Assembly: GCA_008632985.1 (NCBI GenBank)
Contig: QPGO01000064.1
Coordinates: 1 to 64,000, forward strand
Origin: Psammoneis japonica
Taxonomy: Eukaryota
Reading direction: 5' to 3'
DNA length: 64,000 nucleotides
The notes beneath the pieces were generated by a model that saw only the letters and a list, made by a program, of their open reading frames with translations, did no database searches and was not told the origin of the DNA. The first letter of the stretch is position 1, and each line of letters starts with the position of its first letter. The position numbers and the translations under genes are program-made. This document shows positions 1 through 28,929 of the stretch, one piece after another.

Positions 1-1408
1 CCTGCCTTGAAGCCACCACCAAGGAGAAGCTTTACATTGCAGCTGGACCCGAATTTGGCAAACTCGAAGGACACATCCTTGTCATCCACAAGGCACTGTA
101 TGGACTGCGCAGCTCCGGTCTCCGCTGGCACGAGCGCTTCGCCGACTGCCTGCGAGCTGAAGGCTTCTTCCCCTGCCGCGCTGAACCCGACATTTGGATG
201 CGCAGGGACGGCAACCACTGTGAACACATTGGCGTTTATGTGGATGACCTCGCCATTGCCATGAAGGATCCTCAATCTTTCATCAACACTCTCACGGAAA
301 AATGCAAGTTCAAGCTCAAGGGTGCGGGACCCATTGAGTTCCATCTGGGTTGCGACTTTTCCCGGGACCCCGACGGAACCTTGTGCCTGTCTCCGCGCAA
401 GTGCATCGAGCGCATGGTCGACAGCTGCGCCCGATTGTTTGGGGAGAAACCTGCCACCAACGCCCTGTCACCTCTAGAGAAGGGTGACCACCCCGAACTG
501 GACACTTCCGAACTGCTGGGACCCGATGGCATTCACAAGTTCCAGTCTCTTGTTGGTTCACTCCAATGGGCAGTGTCCCTTGGTCGAATTGACATTGCCA
601 CGGCTGTCATGTCACTCTCTAGCTTCCGAGCTGCGCCCCGTCAAGGCACTTGGATCGTGCCAAACGCGTCTGTGGGTGCCTCTCCAAGATGCGACACGGT
701 GCTCTCTGCGTTCGCACGGAAGAGCCCGACTGTTCGGATCTCCCTGCTCCGGCCTGTGAATGGATGCATTCCGTGTGTGGTGAAGCAGAAGAGATGATCC
801 CGAAGGACGCTCCACCGCCCCTTGGCAAGTTCGTCACTGCCACCCACTACGTCGATGCAAACTTGCACCATTGCATGCTCACCGGACGCTCTGTCATGGG
901 AATGCTCCACTTCCTCAACAAATTCCCGGCTGATTGGTTCTCCAAGAAACAAGCCACCGTGGAGACTGCAACCTGCGGATCTGAATTTGTTGCCGCAAGG
1001 AATTGTGTTGAGCAGATTGTCGACCTGCGCATCACCCTGCGCTGCCTTGGCGTCCCGATCCGCAATGTTAGTTACATGTTCGGTGACAACAAGTCAGTTG
1101 TAGACAGTGCCACCATCCCGCACTCCAAGTTACACAAGCGACACACCGCACTGTCGTTCCACCGTGTGCGTGAGGCAATTGCCTCTGGTTGCCTTGAGTT
1201 CCACTTCATCGAGGGCTCCCGCAACCCTGCTGACATTCTCAGCAAGCATTGGGGTTGCTCCCAAATCTGGGACCTTCTCCGCCCCCTCATGTTCTGGAAC
1301 TTCATCCCATCCGAAGTCGAATCTGTTTCTGTAGCTCCTCAAGCAAACTGGGGAGTGACAGGATTTGAACAGGATTTGGATGCGCGCGAAGTATCGCGCG
1401 CTGTTTAG
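1..1408 (+). mobile_element. Ty1/Copia (CoDi-type) LTR retrotransposon pol 3' end (RT + RNase H), degenerate
   Basis: KALYGLRSSG, YVDDL (RT), GRIDIATAV, HYVDANL, WFSKKQATVETATxGSEF, GDNKSVV, NPADILSKHW (RNase H). 1-bp frameshift at ~648 (PRQG/HLDR). Many Tyr positions now Cys/His. Confidence 0.95.
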
Positions 1409-1631
1409 TTTGCCACGCACAGTTTTGTGTGCTTTAGTTCCGCGCGTTCACGTGCGATGTAGTTTGCTTTCGAGCCACAAGGCTCACAAGAACAATGACA
1501 GCAGCCCGATTGCACCGACTTGCACGTCTTTCGGCTCCTGCAACGGTCTCTGAGCGGAGACTCATCTGCTGTTTAGACAGCAGCAAGGAGTCATTGTTTG
1601 AATTCTTGCCATTTGCCTTCATTTTCTGTCA
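1356..1631 (+). repeat. 3' LTR of the Copia element (~276 bp)
   Basis: Purine run GGGGAG (1350-1355, PPT-like) directly precedes TGACAG. The segment ends in the inverted terminus CTGTCA at 1626-1631. Confidence 0.75.
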
Positions 1632-1675
1632 AGACAATCTACTTTCTTCAACACAGTGGGCCTGAAAAGATGAAT

Positions 1676-1748
1676 GAATGTGTGATCTAGATGGTCCAGG
1701 TGTTCCACCATGGCAAGGATGGTCGTGGGTTCGAGTCCCACCCAAGCA
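1676..1748 (+). pseudogene. tRNA-like relic (tRNA pseudogene or SINE head)
   Basis: Perfect T-arm GTGGG-TTCGAGT-CCCAC, A-box-like TGATCTAGATGG, ~73 nt spacing. Acceptor and anticodon stems do not pair well. Confidence 0.4.
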
Positions 1749-2099
1749 CCGCAATGTTCTGCGCGTTTCCGTGTCACCGTGCATGGGGCACGCATGATGG
1801 GCACAAGTCCAGGCACTTCAACCTGGTTAGACCGGCGTGCATGTCCTGAGCGGACATCTCATCCCCTTCATTGAGGGCCTTCAGCGAAGCCGGTGAAAAG
1901 GGTCGGGCCAGAGTTCTGCTCGCCAGCCGATGTGAGAGTGACAGGTGTGATGCCATGCAGCAAATGGTGCCAACAAATGAGCAGTCCTCAATTGTTGGTG
2001 GTCATCTGAAATGTCCCCTGAGAAGTCTTCACAGATTTCTGTCAATGAAGAAGATGGAGCAGATGCAGATGTGAGAATGAAAGAGATCACAGAACAGGA

Positions 2100-3050
2100 A
2101 AATGAAATGTCACATGCTGCAAAGCATGTCGAGTGAGCTCGAAGGCAACGGACACTTGTGCAACAGCACGTTTTGGAAGAGACAGAACACGTGAAAGCCA
2201 ACAAGGCACATGGTGAGCAAACTTGTGCAAGGATTGGTGGCTGTTGTCAAAATGGCGGGCTTCCACATTTTGGGGCGGATCAGCCAGGGGAGATGCACTG
2301 CTTCTTTCCTTTGATGTTCAACACGTTTGAGACTGACGACCCTGCGGGGGAAAAAGTTGTGGTGGTGACGGAAGATGAGTTCAAGGATTTTTTGCATGCA
2401 TCATGTGTCTGCCATGAGGGTGCTGGACAAAAGGGAGGTGACAATGTTGCTTCCCTTGTGATGAAGCACTTGCATGATGGTGGGCTGTTGGATGTCAGCA
2501 AGGGTCCAGGCGGAAAGCTTGCATTGATTTTTGACAACTGCACCGGGCAAAACAAAAACAACACGGTGTTGAGACTTGCTGTGCACCTGGTGGAACAAGG
2601 ACATTTCAAAGAAGTGAGCATTGTTTTTTTGATGAAAGGGCACACCAAGAATGCCTGTGACAGGCTCTTCAACAGCCTCAAGCAAACTCACCATGACAAG
2701 AACATGTTGGCATGTTCCGCAAACTCTTGACAGCCTTGGACACCTCCAAGTGCACTCAGGTCATTGAAGCAAAGGGGAGGAGGATTTTGCAAAACATTCG
2801 ATGGAATGCCGCCATTTTTAAAATGTCACATCATGTGTGTTTGAATTGTTGAACTGACACGCCGAGGCCAACATGCTTGATGTTGGCGGTTCTAACCTGA
2901 TTGTCACAAAGACCCCTGCCAAGAGACTCAGAGTGGAGACTCGAGACAAACCTGAGGATGCCAAAAGGGAGGCAAACTCAGAGGAGCAACAAAGTTGAAA
3001 AGAGCTGCAACTGAGCTGCCTGGAGAGAACACTTGCTGCCAGAGATGAGA
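2100..3050 (+). mobile_element. Decayed DNA-transposon transposase-like ORF (DNCxGQNKN ... GHT ... DxxF motif family)
   Basis: LPHFGADQPG, HEGAGQKGGDNVASL, FDNCTGQNKNN, FLMKGHTKNACDRLF. Stops and frameshifts around it; no Tyr; TpA-free. Confidence 0.7.
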
Positions 3051-4190
3051 ACGAGGAGAGCACTTTTTTGTGAGCCAGGAGATGGGTCAGTGAAAACACC
3101 ATGGGGTCAGTGAAAACATGGGGGGAGCCCATGAACCAAACACTCCAGAGTCACATTGCTGCTGCACAAAAGTGGACATCACTGGCTTGAAGCACTCCAT
3201 GAGGTTTTGTCAAAAGCTCCAGCACCAGCATGGCAGGGAAAACATCATGTCACAGAAGCCAAGAGAAGCAAGCACCTCCAACACAGCAACAACAATGACC
3301 GCCCACATGAGCACCAAGTTTCTGCCTTGTGACAAAAAAAGCCATTGGCACCATGGCATTTTTTGTCTGTGGTTGTTGTTCAACTTTTTTCAGTGCAAAC
3401 AGACAGGCTTGTTGTGAATGATTTTGTTTGGTGGTTTCTCCCCTTTCACAAGTGCAAAGTTCTTGCAACCTCATTTGCGCCTTTTTTCAACTCCCTGCTC
3501 TAAAAGAAATTGAACACACAAACAACACTTTTGAATCTGCTGCATCTGGGTTAGCTCACATGGTCATTGATGTGTTTTGGAGATCTGGCTTGGCCACCTC
3601 CTTGTGCGCTGACTTTGAAACAAGCACCCCGCTTTGTGGCAAGAAGCGCGCGCTGTTTTGCCGCTTCTTTTGGTGCACACATCATGTTCATTTCACATTG
3701 TTGATTGGTGCTGCTCACACAATTGAAAAGTTGAAAGAAGTTGTCAAAGCTGACTGCACACTGTCATGGTGACTTGTGCAAAAAACACATCACAGCGCTG
3801 CCCCGCATGCTGGGGAACATGGCCACACGTTGAACAGACTCCAGTGTGCACTTTGTCATGGAGAATGTGGAGTTGAAGAAGACCAGCTAGAGCTGGAAAT
3901 GGCTGCGAGGTGCTGGGTTTGCTTCAACTGGAACATGCAGGTGTGGGATCTGTGCTTCAAAGAACCAAGTTGGTCTTTTGGCACTCGCAGTTGACCAGAT
4001 GAGCTCCCCACTCTCCCAAGACCCATCACTTTTGGATCCTGCAGTTGCACAGCATGTTGATGGGCGCAGAGTGATTGACATGGAGCCCTTCATGTTGGGG
4101 GAGTGCACCCCAGTCTCTCAATCATTGTGGGAGCTGGCAGTGAGGGCAACGAAAGGGTTGGAACCGCGGTGCTCCGTCGGTTTACGACAA
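3050..4190. mobile_element. TpA/CpG-depleted repeat relic, family uncertain (weak piggyBac-like hints on minus strand)
   Basis: Only ~3 TpA seen in 1.1 kb. Cys/His-rich spurious ORFs. Family assignment rests on faint motif resemblance only. Confidence 0.45.
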
Positions 4191-4742
4191 CCTTGTGGCA
4201 GGCAGTCACTTTAGTGAAAATGTAGACCCTTTCAATTAAAAAAAATGTCGCAGAGAATGTCTATAAAATAGTTCTTCAACGTTGGCGGCTCATCCGCCCT
4301 GCATCGATTGTTGCCGGTCACAGTTTTGTCTTGTCGTCGACATTTTAAGAAGTCTCGAGCGGACAGAATGATTAGTCATAGAGACAAAACATTTATACAG
4401 CATTTCGCGCGAATAGCTATTTAGGGACAAAACATTTAAAAACGACTTTGTCTTTAACAAATTCATCAGCGACATATACAGTTTTTCGTAGCTGTAATCT
4501 TTCGGAATAGCCCTACATGGGAATGAATTAAAGCCCCCCACAATTCGACTTTTATGGTGACAATAATCCTACCTGCGCGTTGTTCAAAAAAGACAACGAA
4601 CGAAAGCCTCTCTACTAGTAGAGGACAAACAAAACATCACAAAGCAAACAATACAAACGTTCTAGTCACTCGACACCAACGTTCGACGTGATAGATTGTG
4701 TATCACGCCGTCGTCTCGACGCGCATCAGCAACTTGAAAACT

Positions 4743-7078
4743 ATGATGATCATCAGAGCGGCATGGACTGTGCTTGCTGCACTTGCTTTTGACGTCTTTG
4801 ACGCAGCTTCGGCGCAAAAACAAGAAAAACCCAATATTGTATTGATTGTAGCGGATGATCTCGATGCCGACGAGCTTGGAGTAACAGCTCAAGAGACAGG
4901 CATTTGGCCAACTAATACAGGAGCTGGACGGCTCGGCTTGTGGACTAAAAAACATGATCCAAATGTACTCACACCACACATTGATTCCCTGGCAAGAGAC
5001 GGTGTACTCATGACCAAATATCATGTCAGCAACACGCAGTGCACCGGAAACCGCTACGCTATGCTAACGGGACGGCAAGCGACGCGTGGAGAGGACTTGC
5101 TGAACCATTTTCCAGTTGGGACTCTCGTCAATTTGGGTTGGGAAGCGGGAATTCTGAGAAACGAAACCAATGTGGCTAAATCGCTTCAAGCACTTGGATA
5201 TCGGACTGGCATTATTGGAAAGTGGCACAACATTCCCGAGAACGAGTATGCCAAACGTAGGCTCCCTTTAAAATATCGACCAGATCATTTGCCAAACGCC
5301 AACTACAGTCACACGCGGTCGGTCCATGGAAACTCAAGGCTCATTATGACGCGCATGTGGCATACCTCAAAGATGGATTTGGTTGGGATGTGGTGGATAG
5401 GATGGAATGGGGTAATTCCATTGTAAATTTACAGTGGCAAGCCCAAGGTGCTGTCGAGTTTATCAAAGAGAGCGCTTATAACAGCCCTTTCTTCCTTTAT
5501 GCTGCTCTCCCTGTACCACACGGTCAATATTTCTTTTCTTTTAATGATCTGGAGAGCTATGACGATCGAGTCACTTCCAGAGGGATCATCACTAACGTGC
5601 CCAAGGTGTTACCGCCTGTATTCAGCGTCAATGCCCGCACGAAAGCGGCTGGTGTGAAGAAAGCGAATGCAATGGCCACACGAATGGATGACTATGTTGG
5701 AGTGATTCTGCGAGAGCTAAAAGATTTGGGCTTGAGTGACAACACCCTCGTAATGTTTACGAGTGACCACGCGAGTCGCGGAAAGAACGGATGCTATTCT
5801 GGCGGTGCTCACGTGCCTTTTATCGCTCGTTGGCCTCGAAAGATTAGGAAGAACACAAGAGTCGACTCCCTTGTGGCCAGCGTTGACCTAGCCCCTACCA
5901 TTATCGATGCCGCGGGAGGAACCGCTCCCGCTGATATGATTGACGGGATTAGCTTCAAGCCCGTGATGTTGGGACAACCCGAACCGAAGAACTTCCGGTC
6001 GAGCATTATACTTGAAGCACAGACTACCCGCGCCGTTGTCACAAAAAAATGGAGCTATATTGCGAACAGAGTGACCCCCGAGATTGCCAAGGCGATGGCA
6101 AAAAGACCGGGCAAAGTCTTTTGGTCCGGAGTCGACCATCACAATTATGATAACGAGCTAATGTATCCTGCGTACTGGGATGCGGACCAGCTGTATAACC
6201 TTGAAACGGATCTTTATCAGCAGGTTAATCTTGTTGCGGACAAACGCTATAGTGGCAAACTGAAATCTCTCAGGGCTGAACTTCATCGGTATATTGCAAC
6301 GACTCTTCATTCCTTTGGTGAATTCGGAAAGGGCGGTTCTCAACTTGACGCGGGCGGTTCCCAACTTGGCGCTTGGACTACACAGAACTTTCTCGAGTTC
6401 ACCGAATCTGAAGGTTATGCGAAAGGAAGCCTTAAGGCCTCTGATGATTGGGTTGGGACTTTGGAAAACTATATGGTGCACCCTGCTGGCCGAGGGTATC
6501 TGCAGCTGCCAAAAAGAAGACATGCACGCAACGTTGCCCTGATGAAAGCTGGGCTTCCTCTTTCAAACAGATATGAAGTTGTGTTGGACTTTAAATTTGT
6601 ACGACGACGAGGGAAACTTGATAAGGAGCAAGGTGTGCTCATGGCTGAGATAAAAGAGCGTTTGAAGAATGGAAAAGAGGGTAGCAAGCTGGGAATTTCT
6701 TTGATGCGATCAAGAAGCGGCGATATATACTTGTTGCGGCTCGAAAATAGCATGAGTTCAGAAGCGTGGAAGGCTAGAGGAATGGACATCAATGAAGACC
6801 TTTTGGGCTTCGGCGGTACAAAAAACGCTGCCCAGAGTGACCAACTGCGACTCACGTTCAAAGTCCAGCGCGGTTCAAAGAAAACTGACTGGAGGGTTAC
6901 CAGCACGATGGAAAATCTCGACAATGAGAAGGTTGTTTCTATACTGACTCATACGCTGGACTCGTCTCAGGACTTCTATACAGATGATATTCTATTCACC
7001 GCTATTAATTCGGTTGACTCAGAGGATTCGTCGCTCTTATTGGGTCGCACGGTTCAAAAGATCACCGCAAGGTCTTGA
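4743..7078 (+). CDS. Secreted sulfatase (S1 family) copy 1 with C-terminal beta-rich domain; 1-bp frameshift at ~5329
   Basis: Signal peptide, KPNIVLIVADDLD, CTGNRYAMLTG, GYRTGIIGKWH, FTSDH, HVPFIARWP, QLYNLETD. CATGG-AAA here versus CATGGCAAA in copy 2. No introns. Confidence 0.9.
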
Positions 7079-7223
7079 GAGACCACGCGGTCGCACTTCT
7101 CAGTCCCTCATCAAAACGTGGCATTTAGTCTAGGTGTATGCTGTTGGCAAATCTTACAAGTATAATGGCACAAAAGCGTTTCCTATAAAAAAGATATAAC
7201 TACTGTAACTGTTCAGGTTTATG

Positions 7224-8760
7224 TCATGTCCTGTGCAAAATTTCTGCCTTGTTGTGGGGCTCAATTTTTGCACATCTGTGTCAAGCACTGTCCTGGTGGC
7301 ACCATTTCATCAGATGACAGTGAATCAGAGGCATGTGATGCAAGCCTCGCTGTGCCTGTGGCAACAACAAACCTGAGAGGGGAAAGAGAAAGAGAGCAGC
7401 AAGGAGATGAGGTGTCCGGGTCATTGCAGGTGCTGCTTTTTGCACTGTGCCAGATGATGCTGGTGCACCCAAAAGATCTGATGTGCAAGAACATTGCTCA
7501 CAGCCTCAAAAGATTCACCCTGTGGTGTCTGGGCTGGCCTGGGACACCAGGGTGGCACACTCCAAACTGGAGGGGAAGCACATGCTTTTTTCAGGAGACT
7601 GCACAGTGCATGATGGCAGCAGCTGGCATGGTGCCCCCCCCCCCCTCTCCTGCCCTTCCCACCTGGAGCAGCATGCATGTGTTAAAGAAGAGGGCAGCTC
7701 ATGCCCCCCTCCTCCCAGGCAAACCTCTCAGACTGTGGCTGCCACCACTCAGAGGCCACTGCTGCAGCACCCCTGCTGGCGCTGCTCCTCCTCCCCGTGC
7801 TGTTGCTCCTCATTGCTCTGCAAGGCCTTTGCCCAAGAAAGCAAGGAAAAAAGCTCTTGCAATGCCTGAAGGAGTGGCTGGGAGAAGTTGCAAAATCCCC
7901 AGATGCTCCAGCCACATGTTGCAGCCCTGGACAAGCCCAAGAGCCTTGGCACCAAATCCAGGATGGGTTTTGTCATCAATTTTTTGGTTTGATTGCCGCT
8001 TTCAAGGTTGTTGCAGAGAGCAGTGCAGCAACCATCTCTTGTGCAAGACAGAGTTGAAAAGGGAAGGCCGCGAGTCGTTGAAACATTTTTGACAAGGTGC
8101 TTCTCAAGAAGGACACAACAGAAAAGAAACAAAGTTGGCCAAGTGTGACAAGCACTTGCGAAGTTGCTCCACAAGCACTTTGTTGGGCAAGAAGGCAGTT
8201 TGAAGTGACAAGAAACTGTGGGCCCCAAACACTGCTCACTGCACTTGCCCTGGCAATGGGGGTTGCTCTTCCAAGGACATGCCAACAACACCCTCAAAAA
8301 GCACAGCTTTGTCAAGCAAAGTGCGTGTGAAAATGTGCAAACGTTGATGCTTTGGTTGTGACTTGCTGTCGAAATTGTGCGCCAGCAGTTTTTTCCCATG
8401 TCTGGCAACAAGGACTCCGCTGTCTTGACTTTCTCTCAGAGCTGACACTGTGCCCAGCAGAAATGGGAAGTGAGCTCCATGTTGCACTGTGCGCTCAGTG
8501 AAGCACAACAGCTGCAGTGAGCATGTCATGCTCAGCTCGATTTTTGAGCTTTGCACGCCTCCCACCCTCCCTCTTTCTTGTGCCGCCACTTTCCTCAGGC
8601 AGTTGCTTGGAGTGTCGAGACAGCAACCTTTTCACTGTCTCCCACCACAGGTTACAATGAGACAGGGCTTTTTTGTCCAAAATGAGAGAGAGTTTTCACC
8701 AATGGCGATCCTCACCAAAAAACAAATTAACGCCCGCACGCTGACACACGTGGGTTGAGT
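7224..8760. mobile_element. TpA/CpG-depleted repeat relic inserted at the end of the sulfatase duplication unit
   Basis: Homology with the copy-2 3' flank (CTGTTCAGGTTTA) stops at ~7221. One TpA (GTTAAA, ~7683) seen between 7224 and 8650. Confidence 0.6.
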
Positions 8761-11049
8761 GCTATCCAAACGGTGTGTCATTGAAATAAATTCCTTTGGT
8801 GGCTGAAGATCACTGGTATGATGGCACGACGCTTTTGGGCCACGTCCGCGCGGCCATCGCTGTGATTTTCGACAAAACGCTCATAACCCATAAAATCAAT
8901 TTTTCTTCATCCAAAACGCAGACACGCGACGCAACTCAAGTCGACCATGGGATCGGTTGCGGCGGCGGCAATATTTAACACCAAGTGTAAGAAACACCTG
9001 GAGAGTATGTTAAAACCTCATTATGATGATAAGGTAAGGGTGATAAAGCAAGGCATCTTCATTTGATGCCTTTAATCGTCATCTGAACTTTTCACTCAAT
9101 TTCTTTGTTTCTTCTGCATCCGACACGACAGCAAATGTTTTGAAGGTGTAAAGTGGAAGGTATTAGGCAGGTACCCATGACTTGGACGATATATTCGATA
9201 AAGATGACATAGAAAGGCACAAGTTCTTTCTTTGGCAGTGTTTTCCGTTTCAAAAACAAAAGCAAGCGCGGAAATCCTTGCTCACAACGATCATTTGCAA
9301 CATTCAAATCGACTCAATGTCTACGTTATTCCATCCAAATGATTCATCAACGGCTAAAACACCACCCTCTATGTCTAAATGAGACGATCCTGGGCAGTTA
9401 TCAGTTGTCAAAAATTTATGAGAGTTCCTGAGGAGCCGCAAGCAGTTGGACCTCGGATCCTTTGAACATGCCAGCTCCAACCAAATCGATTCGGAGCACG
9501 GCTTAAATTGTTCATATTGTCTGCAAAGAGGCGTTTTGAAGCGGCACATATTTCTAAGATCGGGATCAAACTGTAGAAAATGCTGCCAGTGATAGGTAAA
9601 TGACGACAGCTGGCCGGAACCCATTTGTCGGACACCATTTTCATCATTTTGTACAGCATGCACGGAACGATGCGCAGTTTGTCAATAATGTAGATTGAAG
9701 GCTTTAAAATAGTGCAGGAAGCATCTAATATATAGAAGGACATTAAATATGAGCAATAGCAAGAGTCAACAAACACAATTAGTGACATTGAAGCCCGAAA
9801 GTAGGATTGATCCGGAACTTGGTGTGAGCAGGTGGTTCTCTCTGCAAGGCTCCAAGCGCTAGAAATCACTACTGCAATGATGAGAATAGAATTATCAATG
9901 AGTAATTTGACAAAAGTGGTATAGACTAGTGCTGTTAATGGCTAATTATGACTAGGAGCTACATGCCACGACCTCGAGGAGATGCACATGCCACGGCAGA
10001 TTGAACTGGCAGACCCCAGCATGCCGAGAAAACACTCGTATCAATGTCTATTCTCTGCTGAGCATAGTTACAGTTCGATCTTGAAGGTTTGAGGGTCTCG
10101 GCAAAGCCCCTTTGAGGGACAAACAAGGTTTACAACTGTGCTTTGCATCGATTTGGCTGCAGGTGCTAGATTCGCAGAAGTCTGAGTCCACCTGCTTGCG
10201 GGCCCTCACGTCCTTGAATTGCTCTTTTGTTACCTTGTCTTGCCCATATTAGCTTCCTTTATTACATGAAGGGGCTCTCTAATTCCTTGAACAACCCCTC
10301 CTCATGAATTTCTTGGCATTCTGAGTCGATCAGGCGGTTGCAATAGGAAAAGGCGACGGATGCACTTGTGGATGAGCTCTTGTTTTCAGCTCAGCATCAC
10401 CTCCCACAACAGTCAGGATATTTTCTCCTTCATCTCGATCATAAATATCGACGAATGAACGTTATCCTATGCCGCACCTTCAATGTTGAACCTTGAGAAC
10501 GTCGCCTGAAGTTGTCGGAAGCAGCGACATCGGGTGAAACAAGTGGGCGGCAGCAAAAGTCTTTTTTCGCTCTGTAAGTCCAAGATTCGCAATGTTTTAC
10601 ATAGAACGACAGACATGTAAGTAAATGATGAGATACAATTGAAACATTGCGAATGTTGACCCAAGAACGCAAGCAGTAACGTTCTTACCGATGAACGGCG
10701 ACTCACCATTTTCGTTCCGTAACTTTTACGCATTTTTTGTACTGTGAATTGTGGGAGGCAGATCTGAATTTCGGCCCAAAAAAAAGAAGGAAGGAGCGGC
10801 TTTTCAGTACTGCCGTAGAATCTACGTGCAAGATGACGTCACAGTACAAAATGCCATTTCTACGCAGCGGTGGCCGCTCCCGCGAGCGTCGTGTGTTTGA
10901 CAACCTCCGGCCCGGCACTCCAACTCGGCGTCCCGTAGAAATGCACGCGAACGAGATCACAAATCACACAGCATTCTCAAATTCTCCACTTGACACCAAC
11001 CTTCGACGTGACATTCACCGTTCTCACGCCTTCGGTCCTCCTTGCTTCG

Positions 11050-13355
11050 ATGATGAACAAAGCGGCGTGGATTGTGCTCGCTGCACTTGTCGTCCTTGAC
11101 GCAGCTTCGGCGCAAAAACAAGAAAAGCCCAACATTGTGTTGATTGTAGCGGATGATCTCGATGCTGACGAGCTTGGAATAACAGCTCAAGAAACAGACA
11201 TTTGGCCAACGAACACGGGAGCTGGACGGCGCGGATTCTGGACCAAGAAATATGATCCAAATGTCCTCACTCCTCACATTGATTCCATGGCAAAAGACGG
11301 CGTAATCCTGACCAAGTACTATGTCAGCAACACGCAGTGCACCGGAAATCGCTATGCCATGCTAACGGGACGGCAACCGACGCGTGGAGACGACTTACTG
11401 AAACACTTTCCTGCTGGAACTCTCGTCAATTTGGGTTGGGAAGCGGGAATTCTAAGAAACGAAACTAACGTTGCCAAATCTCTCCAAGCATTGGGATATC
11501 GGACTGGCATTATAGGAAAGTGGCACAACATTCCCGAGAACGAGTATGACGAACGTAGACTCCCTAAAAGAAATCGACCAGATCATGCTGCAAATGCCTC
11601 CTACAACCATACGCGGTCGGTTCATGGCAAACTCAAGGCTCATTATGACGCCCATGTGGCATACCTCAAGGATGGATATGGTTGGGACGTGGTGGATAGG
11701 ATGGAATGGGGTAATTCCATTGTAAATTTACAGTGGCAAGCCCAAGGTGCTGTTGAATTCATCAAAGAGAGCGCTAATAAGAGCCCCTTCTTCCTTTATG
11801 CTGCTCTCCCTGTACCACACGGTCAATATTTCTTTTCATATAACAATCTGGAGAGCTATGACGATCGAGTCACCTCCCGGGGGATCATCACTGATGTACC
11901 CAAGGTGCTGCCGCCTGTATTCAGCGTCTATGCCCGTACAAGAGCGGCTGGTGTGAAGAAAGCAAATGCAATGGGCACACGAATGGATGACTATGTTGGA
12001 GTGATTTTACGAGAGCTAAAAGATTTGGGGTTGAGTGACAACACCCTTGTACTGTTTACGAGTGACCACGCAAGTCGTGGAAAGAACGGATGCTATTCTG
12101 GCGGTGCTCACGTGCCTTTTATCGCACGATGGCCTGGAAAGATTCGGAAAAACACAAGAGTCGACTCCCTCGTGGCCAGCGTTGACTTAGCCCCTACGAT
12201 TATCGATGCCGCGGGAGGAACCGCCCCCGCTGATATGATTGACGGGATTAGCTTCAAACCCATGCTGTTGGGACAACCCGAACCGAAGAACTTCCGGTCG
12301 AGCATTATACTTGAAGCACAGACTACCCGCGCCGTTATCACGAAAAAATGGAGTTATATTGCGAACAGAGTGACCCCCAAGATTGCCAAGGCAATGGCAG
12401 AAAATCCAGGCGAAGTCTTTTGGTCCGGAGTCAACCACCACAATTATGACAACGAGCTAATTTATCCTGCGTACTGGGATGCGGACCAGCTGTATAATCT
12501 TGAAACCGATCTTTATGAACAGGTAAACCTCGTCGCGGACAAAAATATAGTGCCCAGCTAACATCTCTCAGGGCTGAGCTAGACCGGTATATTGCAACGA
12601 CTCGTCACTCCTTTGGTGAGTTTGGAACCGGCATTTACCAAGGTATCACGCAGGCTACACAGAACTTGTTCGAGTTCACCGAATCGGAAGGTTATGTGAA
12701 AGGAAGCCTTAAGGCCTCTGATGGTTGGGTTGGGACGTTGGAAAACTACATTGTGCACCCTACTGGGCACGGTTATCTACAACTTCCAAAAGGCAGTCAT
12801 GCACGGAACATCGCGGCGATGAATGCTGGTCTTCCACGTTCAAACACATATGAAGTTGTGTTGGACTTTAAATTTGTACGAAAACGAGGGAGACTTGATA
12901 AGAAGAGAGGTGTGCTCATGGCTGAGATAAAAGAGCAGTTCAAGAACGGAAACGAGGGTAGCAAACTGGGAATTTCTTTAATGCGATCAAGAAGCGGGCG
13001 TATATACTTGTTGTGGCTCGAAAGCAGCATGGGTGCAGAAGCGTGGAAGGCCAGAGGCACGGTCATCAATGAAGACCTTTTGGGTTTCGATGGTACAAAG
13101 GATACCGCCCAGAGTGACCAACTGCGGCTCACGTTCAAAGTTGAGCGCGCTTCAAACAAAAGTGACTGGAGCGTTACCAGCACGATGGAAAATCTCGACA
13201 ATGAGAAGGTCGTCTCTATGCTGACTCATAAACTGGACTCTTCTCAGGACTTCTATACAGATGATATTCTATTCGCCGCTATTAATTCGGTTGACTCAGA
13301 GGATTCGTCGCTCTTATTGGGTCGCACGGTTCAAAAGATCACCGCAAGGTCTTGA
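11050..13355 (+). CDS. Secreted sulfatase copy 2; 1-bp frameshift at ~12545
   Basis: Paralogue of copy 1. ORFs 10990-12561 and 12666-13355 join by restoring one base in GACAAAAATATAGT. Confidence 0.9.
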
Positions 13356-13819
13356 GGGACCACGCGGTCGCACTTCTCAGTCCCTCGTCAATACGTGGCA
13401 TTTAGTTTAGATGTACGCTGTTGGTAAATCTAACAAGTTAAACAAAACCGTGTCCTATAAAAAGATGTAACTAGTAGCTGTTCAGGTTTACGACGGACAG
13501 ATGCTGTATATAAAGTTGTTCTCCTCATCTCAAGCCACATGGCCGACGAAAGGGCAATTTCTCTGTCATTTCCCATTTTGAATTTGAGACATAGCCCAAG
13601 GATATTTTAGTTTTGTGTTGTGGCGATCTGGAGGAGGAAGGTCCAGGTCCAACCATTGGGGTGTGATTGTGCAACTGAGACGCCATCACTTCCCAATGGA
13701 TCTTCACAAGAAAGACATAGTCCACGCACTGCCAAGACCTTGCGTCGTCTGACACTAAAAAAGGAATCATTGTCTTTGTGGATCGAGTTTCTATTTTCCA
13801 CTTCTCTTGTACTTGTACG

Positions 13820-14255
13820 TTAGACCCTCTATCTATCTACTGTAGCTACTCTCTACTAGAGTAGCTACTAGCTAGAGAGGGCCTCTCTCTAGAGTAGTAG
13901 AGGGCTAGAGCGAGAGTGGTACCGTATTGTTGTGGAGGGCTAGCTACTACTAGCTACTCTAGAGTAGCTAGCTAGCTCTAGCTCTAGAGAGAGCTCTAAG
14001 CTACTAGCTACTCTCTAGCTAGAGACTAGAGTAGCTACTCTAGTACTCTCTAGAGTACTAGAGTAGCTACTCTAGAGAGTAGAACTCTCTAGCTAGAGTA
14101 GTTCTAGGTACTCTCTACTCTCTAGAGCCTAGAGTGGACATACAGGTAGAGAGAGTTGAGTACTCTACTCTCGATCTATCTACAGCACTGTACAGTAGAC
14201 TCTCTAGCTCTCTACTAGCTAGCTAGCTCTCTCTAGAGAGTAGAGAGAGCCCTCT
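13820..14255. repeat. Low-complexity CTAG/TAG/CTA/AGAG tract
   Basis: ~430 bp built from shuffled CTAG, TAGCTA, AGAGTAG, CTCTCT and AGTACT words, with no fixed period. Confidence 0.85.
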
Positions 14256-14550
14256 CTGCTGGCGATAGCGTAGACAATAAGTCATCGTACAGTAACAAAA
14301 TGTTTAACGAAAATGACTTATTGTATCTTTTGTTACATAAATCAAAACAATTTGTTGGACATCTGCTATTTAACATATTGGATCCCGAGACAAAAAGAAA
14401 TCAGGAAAGAATGAATCCACCGATGCATCACAAATCACACAACGTACTGTAACATCACACAAGCATTCTACTCGCAATCTTAACACTCTAACTCAACACC
14501 AACATTCGACGTGATTCATCGTTCTCGCGCCTTCGGTCCTCTTTGCTTCG

Positions 14551-16856
14551 ATGATCAACAAAGCGGCATGTATCGTGCTTGCTGCACTTGTTGTTGACGT
14601 CTTTGACGCATCTTCGGCGCAAAAACAAGAAAAGCCCAACATTGTATTGATTGTAGCGGATGATCTCGACGCCGACGAGCTTGGAGTAACAGCTCAAGAC
14701 ACAGGCACTTGGCCAACTAATACAGGAGCTGGACTACTCGGCTTGTGGACAAAGAAACATGATTCAAATGTACTCACTCCGCAGATTGATTCGCTGGCCA
14801 AAGAGGGTGCACTCCTAACCAAATACCACGTTAGCAACACGCAGTGCACAGGAAACCGCTATGCCATGCTGACTGGACGACAAGCAACCAGAGGAGACGA
14901 CTTGCTAAACCACTTTCCTATTGGGACTCTCGTCAATTTGGCTTGGGAAGCGGGTATTCTGAGAAACGAAACCAATGTTGCCAAATCTCTCCAAGCATTG
15001 GGATATCGGACCGGCATTATTGGAAAGTGGCACAATGTTGCCGAGTCTGACGAACGCAGGCTCCCTAAAAGAAATCGACCAGATCATTTGCCACAGGCCA
15101 CCTACGATCACACGCTGTCGGTTCAAGACAAACTCAAGGCTCATTATGACGCGCACGTGGCATATCTCAAAGATGGATTCGGCTGGGATGTGGTGGATAG
15201 GATGGAATGGGGTAATTCCATTGTAAATTTACAGTGGCAAGCCCAAGGTGCTGTCGAGTTTATCAAAGAGAGCGCTAATAAGAGCCCCTTCTTCCTCTAT
15301 GTTGCTCTCCCTGTGCCACACGGTCAATATTTCTTTCCATTTAACGATCTGGAGGGTTTTGACGATCGAGTCACCTCCCGGGGAATCATCACCGACGTGC
15401 CCACGGTGTTGCCGCCTGTATTCAGTGTCTATGCCCGCACGAGAGCGGCTGGTGTGAAGAAAGCGAATGCTATGGCCACACGAATGGATGACTATGTTGG
15501 AGTGATTCTGCGAGAGCTAAAAGATTTGGGGTTGAGTGACAACACCCTTGTACTGTTTACGAGTGACCACGCAAGTCGCGGAAAGAACGGATGTTATTCT
15601 GGCGGTGCTCACGTGCCTTTTATCGCTCGTTGGCCTGGAAAGATTAGGCCAAACACAAAGATTGACTCCCTCGTAGCCAGCGTTGACCTAGCCCCCACGA
15701 TTATCGATGCCGCGGGAGGAACCGCTCCTGCAGATATGATTGACGGGCATAGTTTCAAACCCATGCTGTTGGGACAACCAGAACCGAAGAACTACCGGTC
15801 GACCATCATACTTGAAGCACAGACTTGTCGAGCCGTTGTCACAAAAAACTCGAGTTACGTTGCGAACAGAGTGACCCCCGAGATTGCCAAGGCAATGGCA
15901 CAAAATCCAGGAGATGTCTTCTGGTCTGGAAAGGATCACCACAACTATGATAACGACGTCATGTATCCTGCGTACTGGGATGCGGATCAGCTGTATAATC
16001 TTGAAACCGATCTTTATCAGCAGGTTAACGTCGTCGCGGAGAAAAGCTATGATGCCCAGCTAAAGTCTCTCAGGGCCGAGCTAGACCGGTATATTGCGAC
16101 GACTCGTCACTCCTTTGGTGAGTTTGGAACCGGCATTTACCAAGGTGCCACGCAAGCCACACAGAACTTTCTCGAGTTCACCGAATCTGAAGGTTACGTG
16201 AAAGGAAGCCTTAAAACCTCTGACGGTTGGGTTGGGAACTTGGACAACTACATGGTGCACCCTACTGGGCACGGTTATTTACAACTTCCAAAAGGTAGTC
16301 ATGCAAGGAACATCGCGGTGATGAATGCTGGTCTTCCACGTTCAAAACGATATGAAGTTGTGTTGGACTTCCAGTTTGAATGTAAAAAAGGCAGCCTTGA
16401 TAGGAGGCGTGGCGTGCTCATGGCTGAAATCAGAGAGCTGTCGAAGAACGGAACAGGGAGGAGCGCTTTGGGAATTGCTTTGATGCGATCAAGAAGAGGG
16501 CACAAATACTTGTTGCGGCTCGCAAACAGCATGAATGTGGAATTGTGGAGAGCCAAAGGAACGGTCATCAACGAAGACCTTTTGGGTTTCGGTAGCTCAA
16601 AGGTGTTGTCCAGAGTGATCAACTGCGACTCACGTTCATACTGGAGCGTGGTTCAAACGAAAGTGACTGGGCTTTTACCGGCAGGTTGGAAAACCTCGAC
16701 GATGAGAAGGTTGTATCTATGCTGACTGGCACATTGAACTCTTCCCGGGACTTTTTCTCCGACGAGGTTCTGTTTGCCAGCATTAATTCTCTAGACTCAG
16801 AGGATTCGTCGCTCTTATCCAGACGGACAATTCAAAGGATTGCCGCAAGGTCGTAA
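14551..16856 (+). CDS. Secreted sulfatase copy 3; 1-bp frameshift at ~16602
   Basis: Paralogue of copies 1 and 2. After the shift the frame continues QSDQLRLTF...IAARS to TAA at 16854-16856. Confidence 0.9.
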
Positions 16857-19142: not shown

Positions 19143-19489
19143 TCTTGATTGTCATCAACCAGATTGCCAATCGCAATCACAAATGCTGACAATGCTGAAT
19201 GAAGATAGATAGCCCCTAGACGATAGATTACAGATACATAGATGTTGCTGAAATCGCAAAAGTCCCACCGACCAAACGGCATTGCGTGTTGATGAAGTTG
19301 AGAAGCGCGATCTCTTCTACGAAAATATGTACCAGAGACTACGTAGATTACTTCAACATGTGGAGGGAGAAAACCAAAATCGAAAAACCAAAATTCCATA
19401 CTTGTACTGTAGTGATGCGTGGAGCGAGGGGGGTTGGCATCAGTGAATACACGTTCTGTGTTCACAATCTATTCTATCTACACTACTAG

Positions 19490-22089
19490 CTAGTACCCTG
19501 CAGGTTTCCCACCTTTTCGAATATCCGATACGGCTTGCAGTTGTGTTCGTTTCCATGTCGACTGCCACCGCTTGCACTGTGCCCATGTAATCGACGGGCA
19601 ACAGTGTATGGCCCCTTTTCTTCAATGCAGCTAGGGTTTCGATTGATGTGGCGACTGAAATATTCTTGTCGGTTTGAGCCACCAATGGCTCGCGTTCCCA
19701 TGTTGTAACGGCCCTGCCATGATAAAGCAGTTGATCGTGTAAGCGTGGACTTGCCACTGCTTCATACAAGGGCATTCCCAACCAAGCGTAATTCAATATC
19801 ACTTGTACAACAGCTGATATAATTTTCGGACCACCACTTGCCCCAAGAACAAGCAACAAGCTTCCCAAATCGTTTTCGTCTCTACTTTCTTCATCATCCT
19901 CCTCGCTATCACTATCTGTGGAACGAAAAACCATGGTAGGTGACATGGACGACAATGGGCGTTTCTTGGGCGAAATGTAGTTCGCTTTGGAAGGATGGAG
20001 GCCAAAGTAGTTGAGCTTTCCTGGTGTAGCAAAATCGTCCATCTGGTTGTTGAACACTATCCCTGTAGACGGACTCATCACTTTGGAGCCAAAATACGTG
20101 TTTACTGTTGAAGTGATTGCAACCGCATTACGGTCCTTGTCCACCACTGAAAGATGAGTTGTACCGTGGTCGTGAAGGTATCCAAAATGTCTTAGTTCAC
20201 GTCGTCGTCGCGCCTCGTCTGGTAGCAACAACTGTCTTCGATCTCCTTCATTTGCGTCTCGCATCTCTGCTGTTCCATTTTGTCCATCTCCATCATTCAG
20301 TTTTGCCCATTTTGGTCCGCCATACAGTGACATTGGCAGCTCCTCATCATCCTTGGTCAGCCGCCGAAGTTTGTCCATGTACGTTCCTTGTACCATGTCG
20401 GCGACAGCAGAAGCGGTTGTATTCTGATTAAATGCTGGATCGCTCAATGACATGCGGATTGCGAAAACGTGCTTCAACGATTCGACAAGGCGGTGTTTTG
20501 ACAATGTATCCGCCAAGTAGGCATATGGATTCTTGTAACCCGACAAGAATCTCGCGGCACCGACAATGGCTGCACCGCCCGAACTGGGCGGACCAATCCC
20601 GACAAGATTGACACCGTGAACGTTTCGTGCTACAAGTGGACTTCTCAACACGGGCTTGTATTCCGATAAATCGTCCGCTGTAATAATGCCACCGGCCTCT
20701 TGAATGTCCTTGGCGATTCGTTCTCCCATTTCTCCCTTGTACATGACATCCGCTCCTCCATTCATGATTGCTTCTAGAGTCTTTGCCAGCTTTGGTAATT
20801 TCAACATATCACCTTCTCGAACAAGTCTAGTACTGCCATTCTTATCTCGAATCGAAAAGGCGTTCCATAACTCTGGAAAAGGCTCCATCTTTTTCGTATT
20901 GATTTTGACTTCGTGAGCCAAATAGGGAGATACCACAAAGCCGTCTCGAGCCAACACCATGGCGGGTTCTACCACCTTGGTCCAGGATAATGTACCGTGT
21001 CGAGCATGTGCAAGTTCTAGCCCTCGAAGTTCCGCTGGAACAGCAATCGCCAAGCCACCGACTGGCACATGCGCAAGATATATGGAGAAGAAGTGGCTGG
21101 AATTGAGACGACGAGTGAAATTGAAGAGAACATTCCGAAACAGACACTCACCTTCCGAAGACGCTCCCGGAGCTTTGAACATGTTTTTGCTAGCACCTGC
21201 CGGTGCCTCCTCTCTGCAATCTATAAACTCGGTAACCTTTTCCGACGCATCCACCTTGTCTGCTGTGTCTACTACCCGTGCATCATGAAACGGGGGCGAG
21301 ACGTATTGTTCATGATTCACCTTGGCCTTGTGCGTGTGGAGATTGGAATGAATCAAAATCATGGCACCACCACCAATGCCCGAGGAGGCAGGATTGACAA
21401 CTCCCAAACACAGAGTCGTGGCAACCGCGGCATCCACGGCGTTTCCGTTCTCGTACTGCAAAATGTTGTTGCCCACGTTGCTACAAATTTCCATGTCGGA
21501 TGCGACCGCGCCTTGCATATTTTTGACTAGGAAAGAACAATAGAGAAGAATAAAAGTGAGAAGAAATACCCGTTTGCCATGTCGTTTGATTAAAAAGCCA
21601 GAGAGCAAAACACGTACTTGTGCAGGTAGGTTCGAGCGCCGCAATCGGATCATCACAAACGTCCATGTCAGAATCGTCAGGAAGAATCACTTGATGATGA
21701 TCATCGTAATCGTCACTCGGACTATTGGTTGCAGGAGACCCATTCCAGGACACTGCTAAAATTAAAACAATGAACCCAAGTCCAAGCAGTAGAGCACAAA
21801 TGGCTTGCTTTCGGAATCGAAAATGCGAACCGTTGTGCATCTCATACTTGTCATCCCCGGAAAAGAACGCTTCAAAGGATAAATGACGATTATACGACGG
21901 TTTCTGAGTTTGTGTAGCCGTCTTTCGTCGATGAGGCGCATTGGATGATTCGTCACGGTGCAAAAGGTCATGATCAAAGGATGTCTCGTCGTCGTTGTTG
22001 TTGTTTGCATGCTCGCCTTGCGAGGGCCGCTTTTGATAGGACGATTCAAGCAGACTGCCTTCTTCAATTTTTGCAGAATTTTTAATCAT
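19490..22089 (-). CDS. GGT: Gamma-glutamyl transpeptidase, type II membrane protein with introns; 1-bp frameshift at ~19540
   Basis: GNAVDAAVATTLCLGVVNPASSGIGGG, IDCREEAP, PPSSGG, catalytic HG|TTHLSVVD, PLSSM, GASGG. C-terminus AVSDIRKGGKPAGY* lies in the shifted frame. Confidence 0.9.
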
Positions 22090-24488: not shown

Positions 24489-24879
24489 CTTGGTTCATTC
24501 AACAATGGGATTCATGACGGACATCTGTAAAACGAATGGGTGTCCAGAAGAAAGTATCGTATTAGACTGTCGCCCCCACTTGCCAGCTGATGCAACAGCA
24601 GACAGAGCGTAGTGACACACTGTACTTTCCTGTCGGATTGAACGAGACCAACGAGCTACCGCATGGGTTTTAATGTGATTTATCATGCAGTACGCGTTGC
24701 CGATCTCGAGAGTGAAGGCCAAGAAAAAAATGAAAGAGTCAATTAGAACTAGCAACTAGAACTTGTTGAATTGTCCAATGCCCCTCGAGAAGTGAAACTG
24801 TGGTTTTACATCTTTGTCCGTGACATTTCTAGGTGAGCTGTTGAGACAATAAGGAGCTGTCTTGGTCCCGCTTCGCTTG

Positions 24880-26150
24880 GCCATTTTGACATGCTCCAGA
24901 CTGTTTGTCAGAAACCACAAAACAAAGTTCTCATCGCTGCGTGGACCTGTCAAGACTGCAGGTGCATGATTGTGGCAATGCAGCAAGTGTCCTCCTGCAT
25001 CATTCATTTGGATGAAGCAATCCATTTCATCTTGCATCACTTTGTCACACAGTCACAAGAGATGCGGTTGTCCCACAGCCCCAGCAAGGATTTGGCCAGG
25101 GGGGTTGTCATCATCCACTGTTGTTGTTTTTCCTTGGAAATGGATTTGAGAGCAAGATGACTCACTAAAAAACAGCAAGCTTGTTGGTGAAAAAACAGCT
25201 GATGATTTCAGATGCCACCCAGGGGGCTGCACAGCTCTCTGTGTCCATGAAGCAAGTGCTGTGCACCACATTTCTTCTGTCATGTGTCTTTGTTGAAAGC
25301 AGCAGGCATTCCCATGTGAGTGCAAGCTTGCCAACACTGATGGTAAAAAAGCCAGGGTCTCATTGCATGGTCCAAGCCAAGCTGGGCAGACCAGCTCATG
25401 ATGGGCCATCGTCTTTTTGTGCACACAACTTGCTTCAAGTTCTCTAACTTTTCAACCTTGCTGCTTGCTTCTAGCAAGCTCTCCCTCCAGTGGTGTGCAG
25501 CTTTCAATGTGCCTGCAATGAGTGCTGGTGCGGCATTGTTGCTGATGTGCTCCATGTGCTGCAGTGTGTTTCTGCGCCACAATTTTTCTCACCAAGTGTG
25601 CCAAAGGCACAAAAAAGCCATGCACACATGTTTTTCTGAAATGTTTTGGCAGCAGTCATCATCTTCAGCACAGCAGCTGAGCAACAAAACAGCAGCCATC
25701 ATGTGCCATTGTTGGTGTCTGCTGCTCCTGTCAGCAGCACACACAGCCCTTGGGGACAAGGTTGGCTTTGTGGCCACCAAGGGCTTTGAAGGGCACAACA
25801 TGTGTGTGTGGTTGACAAACCAGGTGCTGCAAAGGATTTGAAAAAAACCTCCCCACCTGTGTGAGACTTTGTTGTGGCATGCTGTGCCTTGGAGTGGCTG
25901 CCCACAAACTTCTTCTCAGTGCTGGCTGCCCATCATGAGGCAGCTCATGATGGGAGAAACAGCAGAGCTCTGCCACATGGTGGCCAGCATCAACCCACCA
26001 CTCGAGCAGGCTGTGCCTGGTGTACAGGAAGCTGTTGGTCCCAACAAGTGGCACCTGGCTTGTTCATTTGACAACGCAATTTGTTTTGCACTTTTTCTCA
26101 TGTCATGCGGTCAGCATGTCGGCATTTGCGAAAGCACGAACGCTTTTCTT
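24880..26150. other. TpA/CpG-depleted island, decayed minus-strand coding relic of unknown origin
   Basis: About 5 TpA seen in 1.2 kb. The minus-strand ORF 24756-25040 grades from Tyr-free (HLLHCHNH) to Tyr-containing at the island edge. Confidence 0.6.
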
Positions 26151-28579: not shown

Positions 28580-28929
28580 TTTTTCCTATATTCAAAGAGC
28601 TACCTGAGCGCCATCTCTCGATGCTCTGAAGTTCAAACCACTGTTTCCCTCTTTAATATCGGTGGCTCTCCCACTCAAGAACAGAACTTAGAGCAATGGA
28701 ATGGAGTTATTGTGATTGCATGTGTGAGATCGATCGTGACGTGCGTGCCGGTGGTGGCTTCTTCGCGCCTTTTTGCAGATCGCTCAAATCGCTGAACCGC
28801 GCGCGTGTCATCGCGCTCGTGACTCACACCTGTGACTGACTGACTCACCAATCGTCTCCAGTCCGCCGTGTGGCAAGAAAGCATCACAACAACCTCTCAC
28901 TGCCACCGGCAGAGGTAGATTCTCATCCC

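Follow-up and report, generated by a model that had tools for sequence, protein, structure and literature searches.

TpA-directed erosion of a Copia retrotransposon end and of other discrete islands in a diatom contig

The window analysed here is a stretch of 64,000 nucleotides from the diatom Psammoneis japonica (assembly GCA_008632985.1, contig QPGO01000064.1, positions 1 to 64,000 of the forward strand). Its first 1736 nucleotides are the 3′ end of a degenerate, CoDi-like Ty1/copia long terminal repeat (LTR) retrotransposon, depleted of the dinucleotide TpA, whose family is extremely abundant in this diatom genome. The Pfam family RVT_2, the copia-type reverse transcriptase (RT) characteristic of Ty1/copia, matched frame 3 at 3-797 (E 2e-15; 57.5 bits against a cutoff of 31.6). 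In tblastn searches the closest full-length relative, a protein of 1859 amino acids (P0004, on which Pfam reported RVT_2 alone), aligned in two frames, over 6-647 at 73% identity and over 632-1312 at 74%. Both pieces align end to end with residues 1413-1848 of that protein and with relatives of about 1886 amino acids. Positions 1-1320 are the C-terminal third of the polyprotein, with RNase H lying after RT at the end of a long gag-pol product, the order found in Ty1/copia. The relatives are polyproteins of about 1886 amino acids encoded on metagenome contigs of about 7 kb, at 63-74% identity, and no protein more than 74% identical was present in the 'longer' and 'near' length classes of a set of 5.8 billion proteins. 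The CoDi lineages described for diatom Copia elements include CoDiI, CoDiII and CoDi6 (Maumus et al, 2009; PMC2806351). The parts of the element are as follows, with Tyr codons given by their first nucleotide.

1..647, plus strand: reverse-transcriptase part of Ty1/copia pol, frame 3; 5′ side cut by the window start
3, 219, 303, 402 and 426, plus strand: Tyr codons changed to Cys, RT part
225, plus strand: Tyr codon changed to His; 540, plus strand: Tyr codon changed to Phe, RT part
33, 99 and 237, plus strand: Tyr codons kept, RT part (237 is the Tyr of YVDD)
646..646, plus strand: 1-bp deletion, shifting pol from frame 3 to frame 2
650..1318, plus strand: RNase H and C-terminal part of pol, frame 2, from homology searches
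671, 677, 731, 755, 776, 974, 1043 and 1256, plus strand: Tyr codons changed to Cys, RNase H part
848 and 1073, plus strand: Tyr codons kept, RNase H part
1321..1736, plus strand: 3′ non-coding and LTR-like segment of very high copy number; bounds approximate

No stop codon interrupts either pol reading frame within 1-1320. The copy lacks autonomous coding capacity, owing to the frameshift at 646 and to the replacement of Tyr in 14 of 19 conserved columns (see below). In run X1, 63% of the summed depth over other copies carried an extra C behind 646. Summed contig depth, which is not a copy number, was 55,000-116,000 over pol and 330,000-580,000 over 1365-1612, fell to about 140 from 1737 and was about 60 for nearby single contigs. 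Within the LTR-like segment, other copies diverge behind about 1599 and about 1631, leaving loose ends; the high-copy 3′ LTR-like segment lies at about 1365-1631, and the 5′ LTR lies outside the window. Searching the rest of the window with the loose-end motif gave no match, and neither DNA self-BLAST nor tblastn with four polyproteins found a further Copia copy inside the window. Just past the truncated LTR, at about 1725-1750, there is a string resembling a tRNA T-arm (GGTTCGAGTCC-like); ARAGORN and Rfam searches gave no hits, at this string or elsewhere.

The earlier note on this DNA, made from the sequence alone, had proposed that positions that are Tyr in related polymerases read Cys or His here. 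Indeed, all the peptides that it quoted occur here, and all of them align to Tyr in relatives. The comparison rests on a protein alignment with 56 full-length homologues of more than 1300 amino acids (of 120 among the matches listed) and on a codon alignment with 61 of 79 metagenomic loci, the other 18 having been dropped because they had no single uninterrupted match of at least 400 amino acids. Over 1-1320 there are 10 TA dinucleotides (observed/expected ratio, o/e, 0.16), 81 CG (0.78), 119 TG (1.57) and 110 CA (1.28); the remainder of the window has a TA o/e of 0.52 and a CG o/e of 0.86. In the homologous segment of the 61 relatives, which are intact, the median TpA o/e is 0.72 (range 0.44-1.12) and the median CpG o/e is 0.81 (0.15-1.23). 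Per 1314 nt, 21 GC-matched relatives contain 36-64 TA, about 93 TG, about 97 CA and 67-116 CG, whereas the same 1314 nt of the window contain 10, 119, 109 and 80, respectively. The window thus exceeds the GC-matched means by 26 TG and 12 CA.

The loss of TpA is mirrored in the protein. At 16 columns that are Tyr in at least 80% of the 56 homologues, the window has Tyr at 5, Cys at 9, His at 1 and Phe at 1, compared with changes at only 26 of 263 other conserved columns (Fisher p 1.4e-7). Likewise, at 19 columns that are Tyr in at least 50% of the 61 relatives it has 5 Tyr, 11 Cys, 1 His and 2 Phe. The 19 dinucleotide sites at which most relatives have TA read TG at 11, TA at 5, TT at 2 and CA at 1; since this is the same split, we take these to be the same sites as the Tyr columns and not independent evidence. 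The lost tyrosines include columns that are 97-100% Tyr in the relatives (402, 677, 776, 974 and 1043). In total, this part of pol holds 5 Tyr, 21 Cys and 20 His, against 17-26 Tyr, 1-10 Cys and 13-24 His in the relatives. One Cys, at 707 (TGC), has a different origin, being derived from Arg (CGC) by CpG decay.

As the earlier note had suggested, we then counted TA, CG and other changes against relatives, using nucleotides conserved in at least 80% of the 61, and found a TpA-specific excess. A>G changes affected 9 of 16 TpA sites but only 2 of 131 other A sites (p 8e-9), and T>C changes 3 of 21 TpA sites but 1 of 127 other T sites. At conserved CpG nucleotides there was one C>T in 10 and one G>A in 42. 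The mutations are therefore confined to TpA and yield TpG or CpA, as in the hypermutation reported for the chlorarachniophyte Bigelowiella natans, to which we return below. Among conserved amino-acid columns 25 of 236 are changed, 10 of these being Tyr. The total number of substitutions at conserved nucleotides (32) is close to the mean in leave-one-out controls (35), which indicates that, TpA sites apart, this copy lies about as near to the consensus of the clade as intact relatives normally do. Sites outside Tyr codons, weighted by the TA frequency of the relatives, retain TA at 1% in the window and at 12-18% in leave-one-out controls (minimum 7%). Tyr codons keep TA at 5 of 19 sites, near the overall figure (10 TA, where GC-matched relatives have about 49), and selection thus does not seem to guard Tyr.

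Two further readings in the earlier note stood only in part. A change of GTGP to GAGP by the same TpA rule agrees with GGT GCG in the window; however, GGT-ACT is only the third commonest form in the relatives (5 of 61), where Thr follows a Gly codon with a variable third base, so that an ancestral T|A at this junction is possible. That the element died by missense agrees with the finding that no stops were made, but killing by this route is an inference, and the 1-bp deletion at 646 is also there.

TpA depletion extends beyond the pol fragment. A 1-kb scan combined with a listing of TA-free gaps delimited nine islands in the window.

1-1320: island A1, Copia pol; TpA o/e 0.16, CpG o/e 0.78
1321-1736: island A2, LTR-like; TpA o/e 0.30, CpG o/e 0.84
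1737-4190: island A3, DUF7869 repeat; TpA o/e 0.04 (7 TA in 2454 nt), CpG 0.38, TG 1.74, CA 1.70
7221-8652: island B, TpA-free; 1 TA, TpA o/e 0.01, CpG 0.19
24851-26022: island C, TpA-poor; TpA o/e 0.06, CpG 0.12
28709-30886: island D, TpA-poor; TpA o/e 0.10, CpG 0.62
37455-38883: island E, TpA-free; 2 TA, TpA o/e 0.02, CpG 0.17
48468-49439: island F, weak; TpA o/e 0.21, CpG 0.83
63640-64000: stretch G, TpA-free; 0 TA in 361 nt, TpA o/e 0.00, CpG 0.61; cut by the window end

Pooled over 11.7 kb, the nine islands have o/e values of 0.09 for TpA, 0.45 for CpG, 1.69 for TG and 1.67 for CA, compared with 0.60, 0.97, 1.18 and 1.17 in the non-island background. TpA depletion coupled with enrichment of TG and CA is again the pattern of B. 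natans. TA-free gaps reach 991 nt against a median of 16, with gaps of 991 and 608 nt inside A3. The edges of the islands are sharp to within tens of bases and fall at repeat boundaries: the switch to TA-rich intergenic DNA after A3 occurs at about 4183-4200, and island B starts at the exact end of homology between tandem sulfatase segments. A3 is an older repeat that adjoins the Copia element and is likewise eroded at TpA. It is of low copy number (summed depth 84-865, against about 60 for single contigs) and carries the remnant of an open reading frame (ORF) with a DUF7869 domain (2137-2727, plus strand; Pfam E 4e-15), which groups with DUF7869 proteins in an Atlas cluster. A restriction to mobile or foreign DNA was seen for 1-4190, that is, for the Copia element together with this repeat. 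Island F contains a 133-nt internal repeat and a match to the helicase-associated (HA) domain, and may be host sequence. Self-BLAST of the window coded as purines and pyrimidines recovered the known tandem gene duplications alone, indicating that the islands are mutually unrelated, and a runs test for strand-coordinated clusters of TG or CA within islands gave z values of -2.1 to +1.2, like background.

Stop triplets are affected accordingly. TAA and TAG together occur at 3.6 per kb in islands and at 17.3 per kb in the background, whereas TGA is not lowered. Loss of TAA and TAG from TpA-free islands leaves long, overlapping false ORFs on both strands. Stacks of such ORFs occupy 1-4190, 7166-8631 and 37345-38752, and no Pfam family was found in them besides RVT_2 and DUF7869.

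The earlier note had argued that TpA conversion runs ahead of CpG decay and is not a by-product of methylation. Both points are upheld. In the Copia fragment TpA (o/e 0.16) lies outside the range of the relatives (0.44-1.12) whereas CpG (0.78) lies within theirs (0.15-1.23), and 17 of 19 majority-CG sites are retained as against 5 of 19 majority-TA sites; the CpG-rich string singled out in that note is present at 129-146. The change is specific to TpA and runs from A:T to G:C, and so is not a by-product of 5-methylcytosine (5mC) deamination. From island to island the o/e values of TpA and CpG vary together (rank correlation over nine islands, rho 0.72, p 0.03), with TpA the more depleted in every island. 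CpG loss therefore follows TpA loss but lags behind it, an order that emerges from the comparison with relatives, from the differences among copies and from the island series, and the TpA process is much faster per site than the decay of CpG to TpG or CpA in the same islands. The description of the two mutation types as uncoupled needs to be divided: they are uncoupled in chemistry, running in opposite directions, but coupled in targeting, for both act on one set of islands with sharp bounds. In the diatom Phaeodactylum tricornutum, LTR retrotransposons are cytosine-methylated, apparently at CpG (PMC2806351). Four metagenome loci (L003, L006, L017 and L023) are intact relatives with a CpG o/e of 0.15-0.26 and a TpA o/e only mildly low at 0.44-0.53. 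Their order of decay is the reverse of that in the window, and they presumably come from hosts with CpG methylation but without the TpA process.

Examination of the bases flanking TpA revealed a further preference. Among TA dinucleotides that survive in islands, 31 of 60 lie in a Y-TA-R context (Y, pyrimidine; R, purine), compared with 370 of 2146 in the background (chi2 47.5, p 5e-11). Relative to background density, survival is 0.37 for Y-TA-R, 0.085 where T-A-Y is present on one strand and 0.049 for R-TA-Y. A Poisson fit, in which TA contexts of the mostly coding background stand in for the ancestral contexts of the islands, gave per-strand loss exponents of 2.4 for TAT, 1.35 for TAC, 0.6 for TAG and 0.5 for TAA (likelihood ratio 44.8, 3 df). 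The products show a corresponding excess, with TGY at 25 per kb against TGR at 12 and RCA at 20 per kb against YCA at 6. The target thus looks to be T-A-Y, or R-T-A on the other strand.

This preference accounts for the form taken by the protein changes. Tyr is the sole amino acid whose codons (TAY) always hold the motif on the coding strand, hence its wholesale loss, and the preference for T-A-Y places Cys far above His as the replacement. The motif on the opposite strand requires a purine before the Tyr codon, so that CA, and hence His, is the rarer product. In the cases listed, a pyrimidine before the codon was associated with Cys in 5 of 5, and a purine with 3 Cys and 1 His (n=4). The earlier note was right that both TG and CA products occur, but at Tyr codons they stand at 11 to 1 (binomial p 0.006), a bias that stems from the T-A-Y preference rather than from RNA editing. 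At sites outside Tyr codons CA reaches 0.27-0.30 of the expected TA and TG 0.17-0.18. Four TA sites that are polymorphic among copies and have T-A-Y on one strand only (40, 1063, 1074 and 1412) all show the predicted product.

Other copies of the family bear on when these changes arose. In run X1, differences among copies comprised 197 transitions and 33 transversions. Among the best 40 of 231 variant rows, the 16 best-supported differences within 1-1320 were six TA to or from TG/CA, six CG to or from TG/CA and four others. Set against 10 TA, 81 CG and more than 1000 other sites, this gives a rough rate per site that is highest for TA, several-fold lower for CG and about a hundred-fold lower for everything else. 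TA>CA differences among copies occur at 40, 99, 1063 and 1069; the window keeps TA at 99 and 1069, where other copies have CA in 73% and 90% of depth, respectively, and most copies are thus without the 98%-conserved Tyr at 99. Since copies differ at TA sites, the process went on after they had diverged. However, an origin of the changes as a whole after integration is not supported: consensus-like contigs from X2-X4, three small runs of the same sample, match the window at 97-99% identity and have its Cys codons in common, except at 403, where 90% of depth is TA (Tyr).

A second element points to recurrence. L037, a metagenome contig of 2759 nt, is another Copia of the clade, with a TpA o/e of 0.31, a CpG o/e of 0.76 and one stop. 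At 39 positions that are Tyr in P0004 it has Tyr at 14, Cys at 9 and His at 6. When Tyr columns were masked, its nearest relatives were the intact L002 and L005, and that of the window was L001; the two eroded elements are therefore not sisters. This suggests that TpA erosion occurs in other environmental hosts too.

The surroundings of the islands are gene-dense, with long, intron-free ORFs. A sulfatase segment of 2.4 kb (Pfam Sulfatase and SGSH_C) is present in three tandem copies at 4745-7221, 11049-13490 and 14496-16852, which are 84-88% identical; a TpA-free island follows the first of these only. The spacer between copies 2 and 3 (13501-14500) has the opposite composition, with a TpA o/e of 1.21 and a CpG o/e of 0.44. 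A gamma-glutamyltranspeptidase gene lies at 19443-21686; all its named best matches are from diatoms, at no more than 56% identity. There are also two segmental duplications, one of 1.3 kb (32050-33484 and 38517-39955; 81% identity), which adjoins island E on one side, and one of 3.5 kb (49690-53205 and 53677-57165; 90% identity) with PhyH, Agenet and DUF6824 ORFs.

Taken together, these results are probably best explained by host-directed TpA hypermutation of silenced or mobile DNA, of the kind reported for B. natans, with a DNA adenine deaminase of the TadA/ADAT2 type as the putative agent. In such a model, a context-specific transition process would act on the DNA of the element and on the other discrete islands of the window, converting TpA to TpG or CpA (A:T>G:C) with a preference for T-A-Y. 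Tyr codons (TAY) would be turned wholesale into Cys (TGY) and less often into His (CAY), and TAA and TAG stops would be destroyed while none were made. By analogy with B. natans the targeting would be directed by the host. The choice of agent is suggested by the flanking bases. In tRNA the base at position 33 is invariably U, and this would provide the 5′ T for TadA/ADAT2. The preference for a 3′ pyrimidine speaks for a TadA/ADAT2-like agent and against one like ADAR: a review table gives 5′UAG as the preferred site of ADAR1/2 and 5′ACG as that of TadA/ADAT2, whose substrate is listed as 'RNA, DNA?' (PMC10661471).

Several observations weigh against this explanation. Targeting of mobile DNA is seen for 1-4190 alone, because islands B to G have no recognisable origin; among 24 island ORFs searched against Pfam at E up to 1 there was no mobile-element family and one HA domain (in F). 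The two Phe codons (TTC) at Tyr columns 540-542 and 938-940 are TA>TT transversions, which a TpA transition process does not cover. Site 1069 (T-TA-G) is off-motif and yet reads CA in 90% of depth. The motif fit takes background contexts for ancestral ones, and the rates among copies are rough, as noted above. Furthermore, most Tyr>Cys changes are common to the dominant version of the family and so may predate this insertion; either a mutated version was amplified, in trans or through duplication, or a motif-directed process close to saturation brought the copies to the same state. Finally, since TpA is self-complementary, A>G at T-A-Y is indistinguishable from T>C at R-T-A.

This last point leads directly to an alternative in which the altered base is thymine: the T of R-T-A would be modified (to 5-hydroxymethyluracil, 5hmU, or a base-J-like form) or mis-repaired in methylated heterochromatin, giving T>C. 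The 5hmU of dinoflagellate DNA favours TpA. The data fit this chemistry equally well, and CpG decay in the islands suggests modified, silenced chromatin, in keeping with the cytosine methylation of P. tricornutum LTR retrotransposons (PMC2806351). We nevertheless regard it as unlikely, given that nothing found in this analysis points to modified thymine in diatom DNA and that the sole experimental precedent proposes, although without proof, adenine deamination (bioRxiv 10.64898/2026.01.13.699255).

Alternatively, an ADAR-like enzyme might have edited A to I in retrotransposon RNA before reverse transcription, the changes being inherited by daughter copies. The 11 sense A>G against 1 T>C at Tyr codons (binomial p 0.006) would be expected of such editing, as would the sharing of most changes across an abundant family. 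However, the T-A-Y motif explains the Tyr bias; outside Tyr codons the rise in CA is no smaller than that in TG (0.27-0.30 and 0.17-0.18 of expected TA, respectively); copies show TA>CA differences at the four sites named above; and the DUF7869 repeat and the other islands are TA-free with TG and CA symmetric. Moreover, ADAR favours a 3′ G (PMC10661471), yet it is TAG and TAA that survive here. Sense-only A>G with a 3′ G, the mark of ADAR-type editing, is thus not what the window contains, and we consider this route quite improbable.

A third possibility is that no special process operated, low TpA being ancestral or selected (UpA avoidance) and Cys or His being tolerated in a functional lineage. 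The Cys residues are indeed common to a dominant, very abundant version of the element, and the ORF is open but for one frameshift that is absent in 63% of depth. Against this, none of the 61 relatives has a TA o/e below 0.44, Tyr has been lost from columns where 97-100% of the relatives have it, other copies lack the 98%-conserved Tyr at position 99 in 73% of depth, TA retention in Tyr codons is about that found overall, with no sign of protection, and the protein search described above found nothing more than 74% identical in the 'longer' and 'near' length classes. We find this explanation very improbable. Regional mutation bias that is not targeted to sequence (GC-biased gene conversion or late replication) is hardly credible, for although the A:T>G:C direction is that expected of GC-biased conversion and the GC content of 1-1320 (0.56) exceeds the window mean (0.48), the changes are confined to TpA (non-TpA A>G, 2 of 131), CpG in the same islands decays the opposite way, and the edges are sharp and lie at repeat boundaries.

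To date, hypermutation of foreign DNA at TpA is on record for a single chlorarachniophyte, described in a preprint of 2026. We found no report of TpA-directed erosion in diatoms in the literature searched, and the available text of the founding CoDi paper makes no mention of RIP (repeat-induced point mutation), hypermutation or deamination (PMC2806351). A diatom signature would mean that the process is not one species' peculiarity and that retrotransposons are hit as well as viral inserts. It would also show that the process can near completion (TpA o/e down to 0.01), and would add two details, the T-A-Y preference and a fixed order in which TpA erosion leads CpG decay in the same islands. Gene finders, and repeat dating built on CpG-type decay, will misread TpA-free islands. 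It is possible, though doubtful at present, that diatoms have a RIP-like defence of opposite polarity, run by a nuclear adenine deaminase derived from TadA/ADAT2 that would recognise T-A-Y in silenced mobile DNA and remove it much faster than methylated CpG decays, and that the same system in Rhizaria makes it an ancient trait of the SAR group (Stramenopila, Alveolata and Rhizaria). If true, the signature would be detectable in any genome as TpA-free, stop-free, Cys-rich ghost ORFs.

How, then, does the pattern compare with known systems? RIP of ascomycete fungi resembles it in its dinucleotide-context transitions, its focus on repeats and mobile DNA, its sharp edges and the inactivation of elements. 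RIP changes C to T mainly at CpA, creates TpA and stops, and lowers GC. Here TpA is depleted (o/e 0.09 in islands), GC is up and TAA and TAG are removed, so that RIP of the fungal type is rejected. Deamination of 5mC affects the same islands and gives the same products, TG and CA, but runs from G:C to A:T at another dinucleotide, and it has scarcely started in this Copia, where 17 of 19 majority-CG sites are kept. Editing of retroelements by ADAR or APOBEC3 is similar in that deaminases serve to restrict repeats, and ADAR favours a 5′ U; however, these enzymes act on RNA or cDNA and mark one strand, whereas here both strands are changed and a 3′ pyrimidine is favoured. In addition, they act on retroelements, whereas the changes here extend to an adjoining repeat that has not been recognised as one. 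TadA/ADAT2 and the adenine base editors derived from TadA would share with the present pattern the deamination of adenine with a pyrimidine 3′ of the target (PMC10661471), and a possible action on DNA is mentioned both in that review and in the B. natans preprint. They differ in that the natural substrate is a tRNA loop and in that the fitted preference here is for TAT over TAC, and not strictly for A-C.

The closest parallel is B. natans (Mettrop et al, 2026; bioRxiv 10.64898/2026.01.13.699255). In mutation-accumulation lines of that species, 231 of 302 nuclear mutations fell in two integrated viral regions, and 230 of these 231 were A>G or T>C, all on TpA. RT and DDE domains are over-represented among its TpA-poor coding sequences, and the authors propose defence by DNA adenine deamination, naming an ADAT2 homologue. 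There are differences. B. natans belongs to the Rhizaria and the present host to the Stramenopila. The substrate there is a single-copy insert of nucleocytoplasmic large DNA virus (NCLDV) or virophage origin, and here a high-copy LTR retrotransposon together with other islands. Mutations were directly measured in the accumulation lines, whereas the window preserves a historical signature only. CpG decay accompanies TpA loss here, while the available B. natans text contains neither 'CpG' nor 'diatom', and T-A-Y is preferred here, whereas the main text of the preprint, as available, is silent on the bases flanking TpA. Depletion is also deeper, at an o/e of 0.01-0.16 compared with a Rho of 0.45 in the NCLDV region. 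The two systems nevertheless agree in what defines the process, namely conversion of TpA to TpG or CpA only, TpA depletion with enrichment of CpA and TpG, and, in the case of 1-4190, foreign or mobile targets. Our best reading is therefore that this window holds the diatom counterpart of the B. natans hypermutation.

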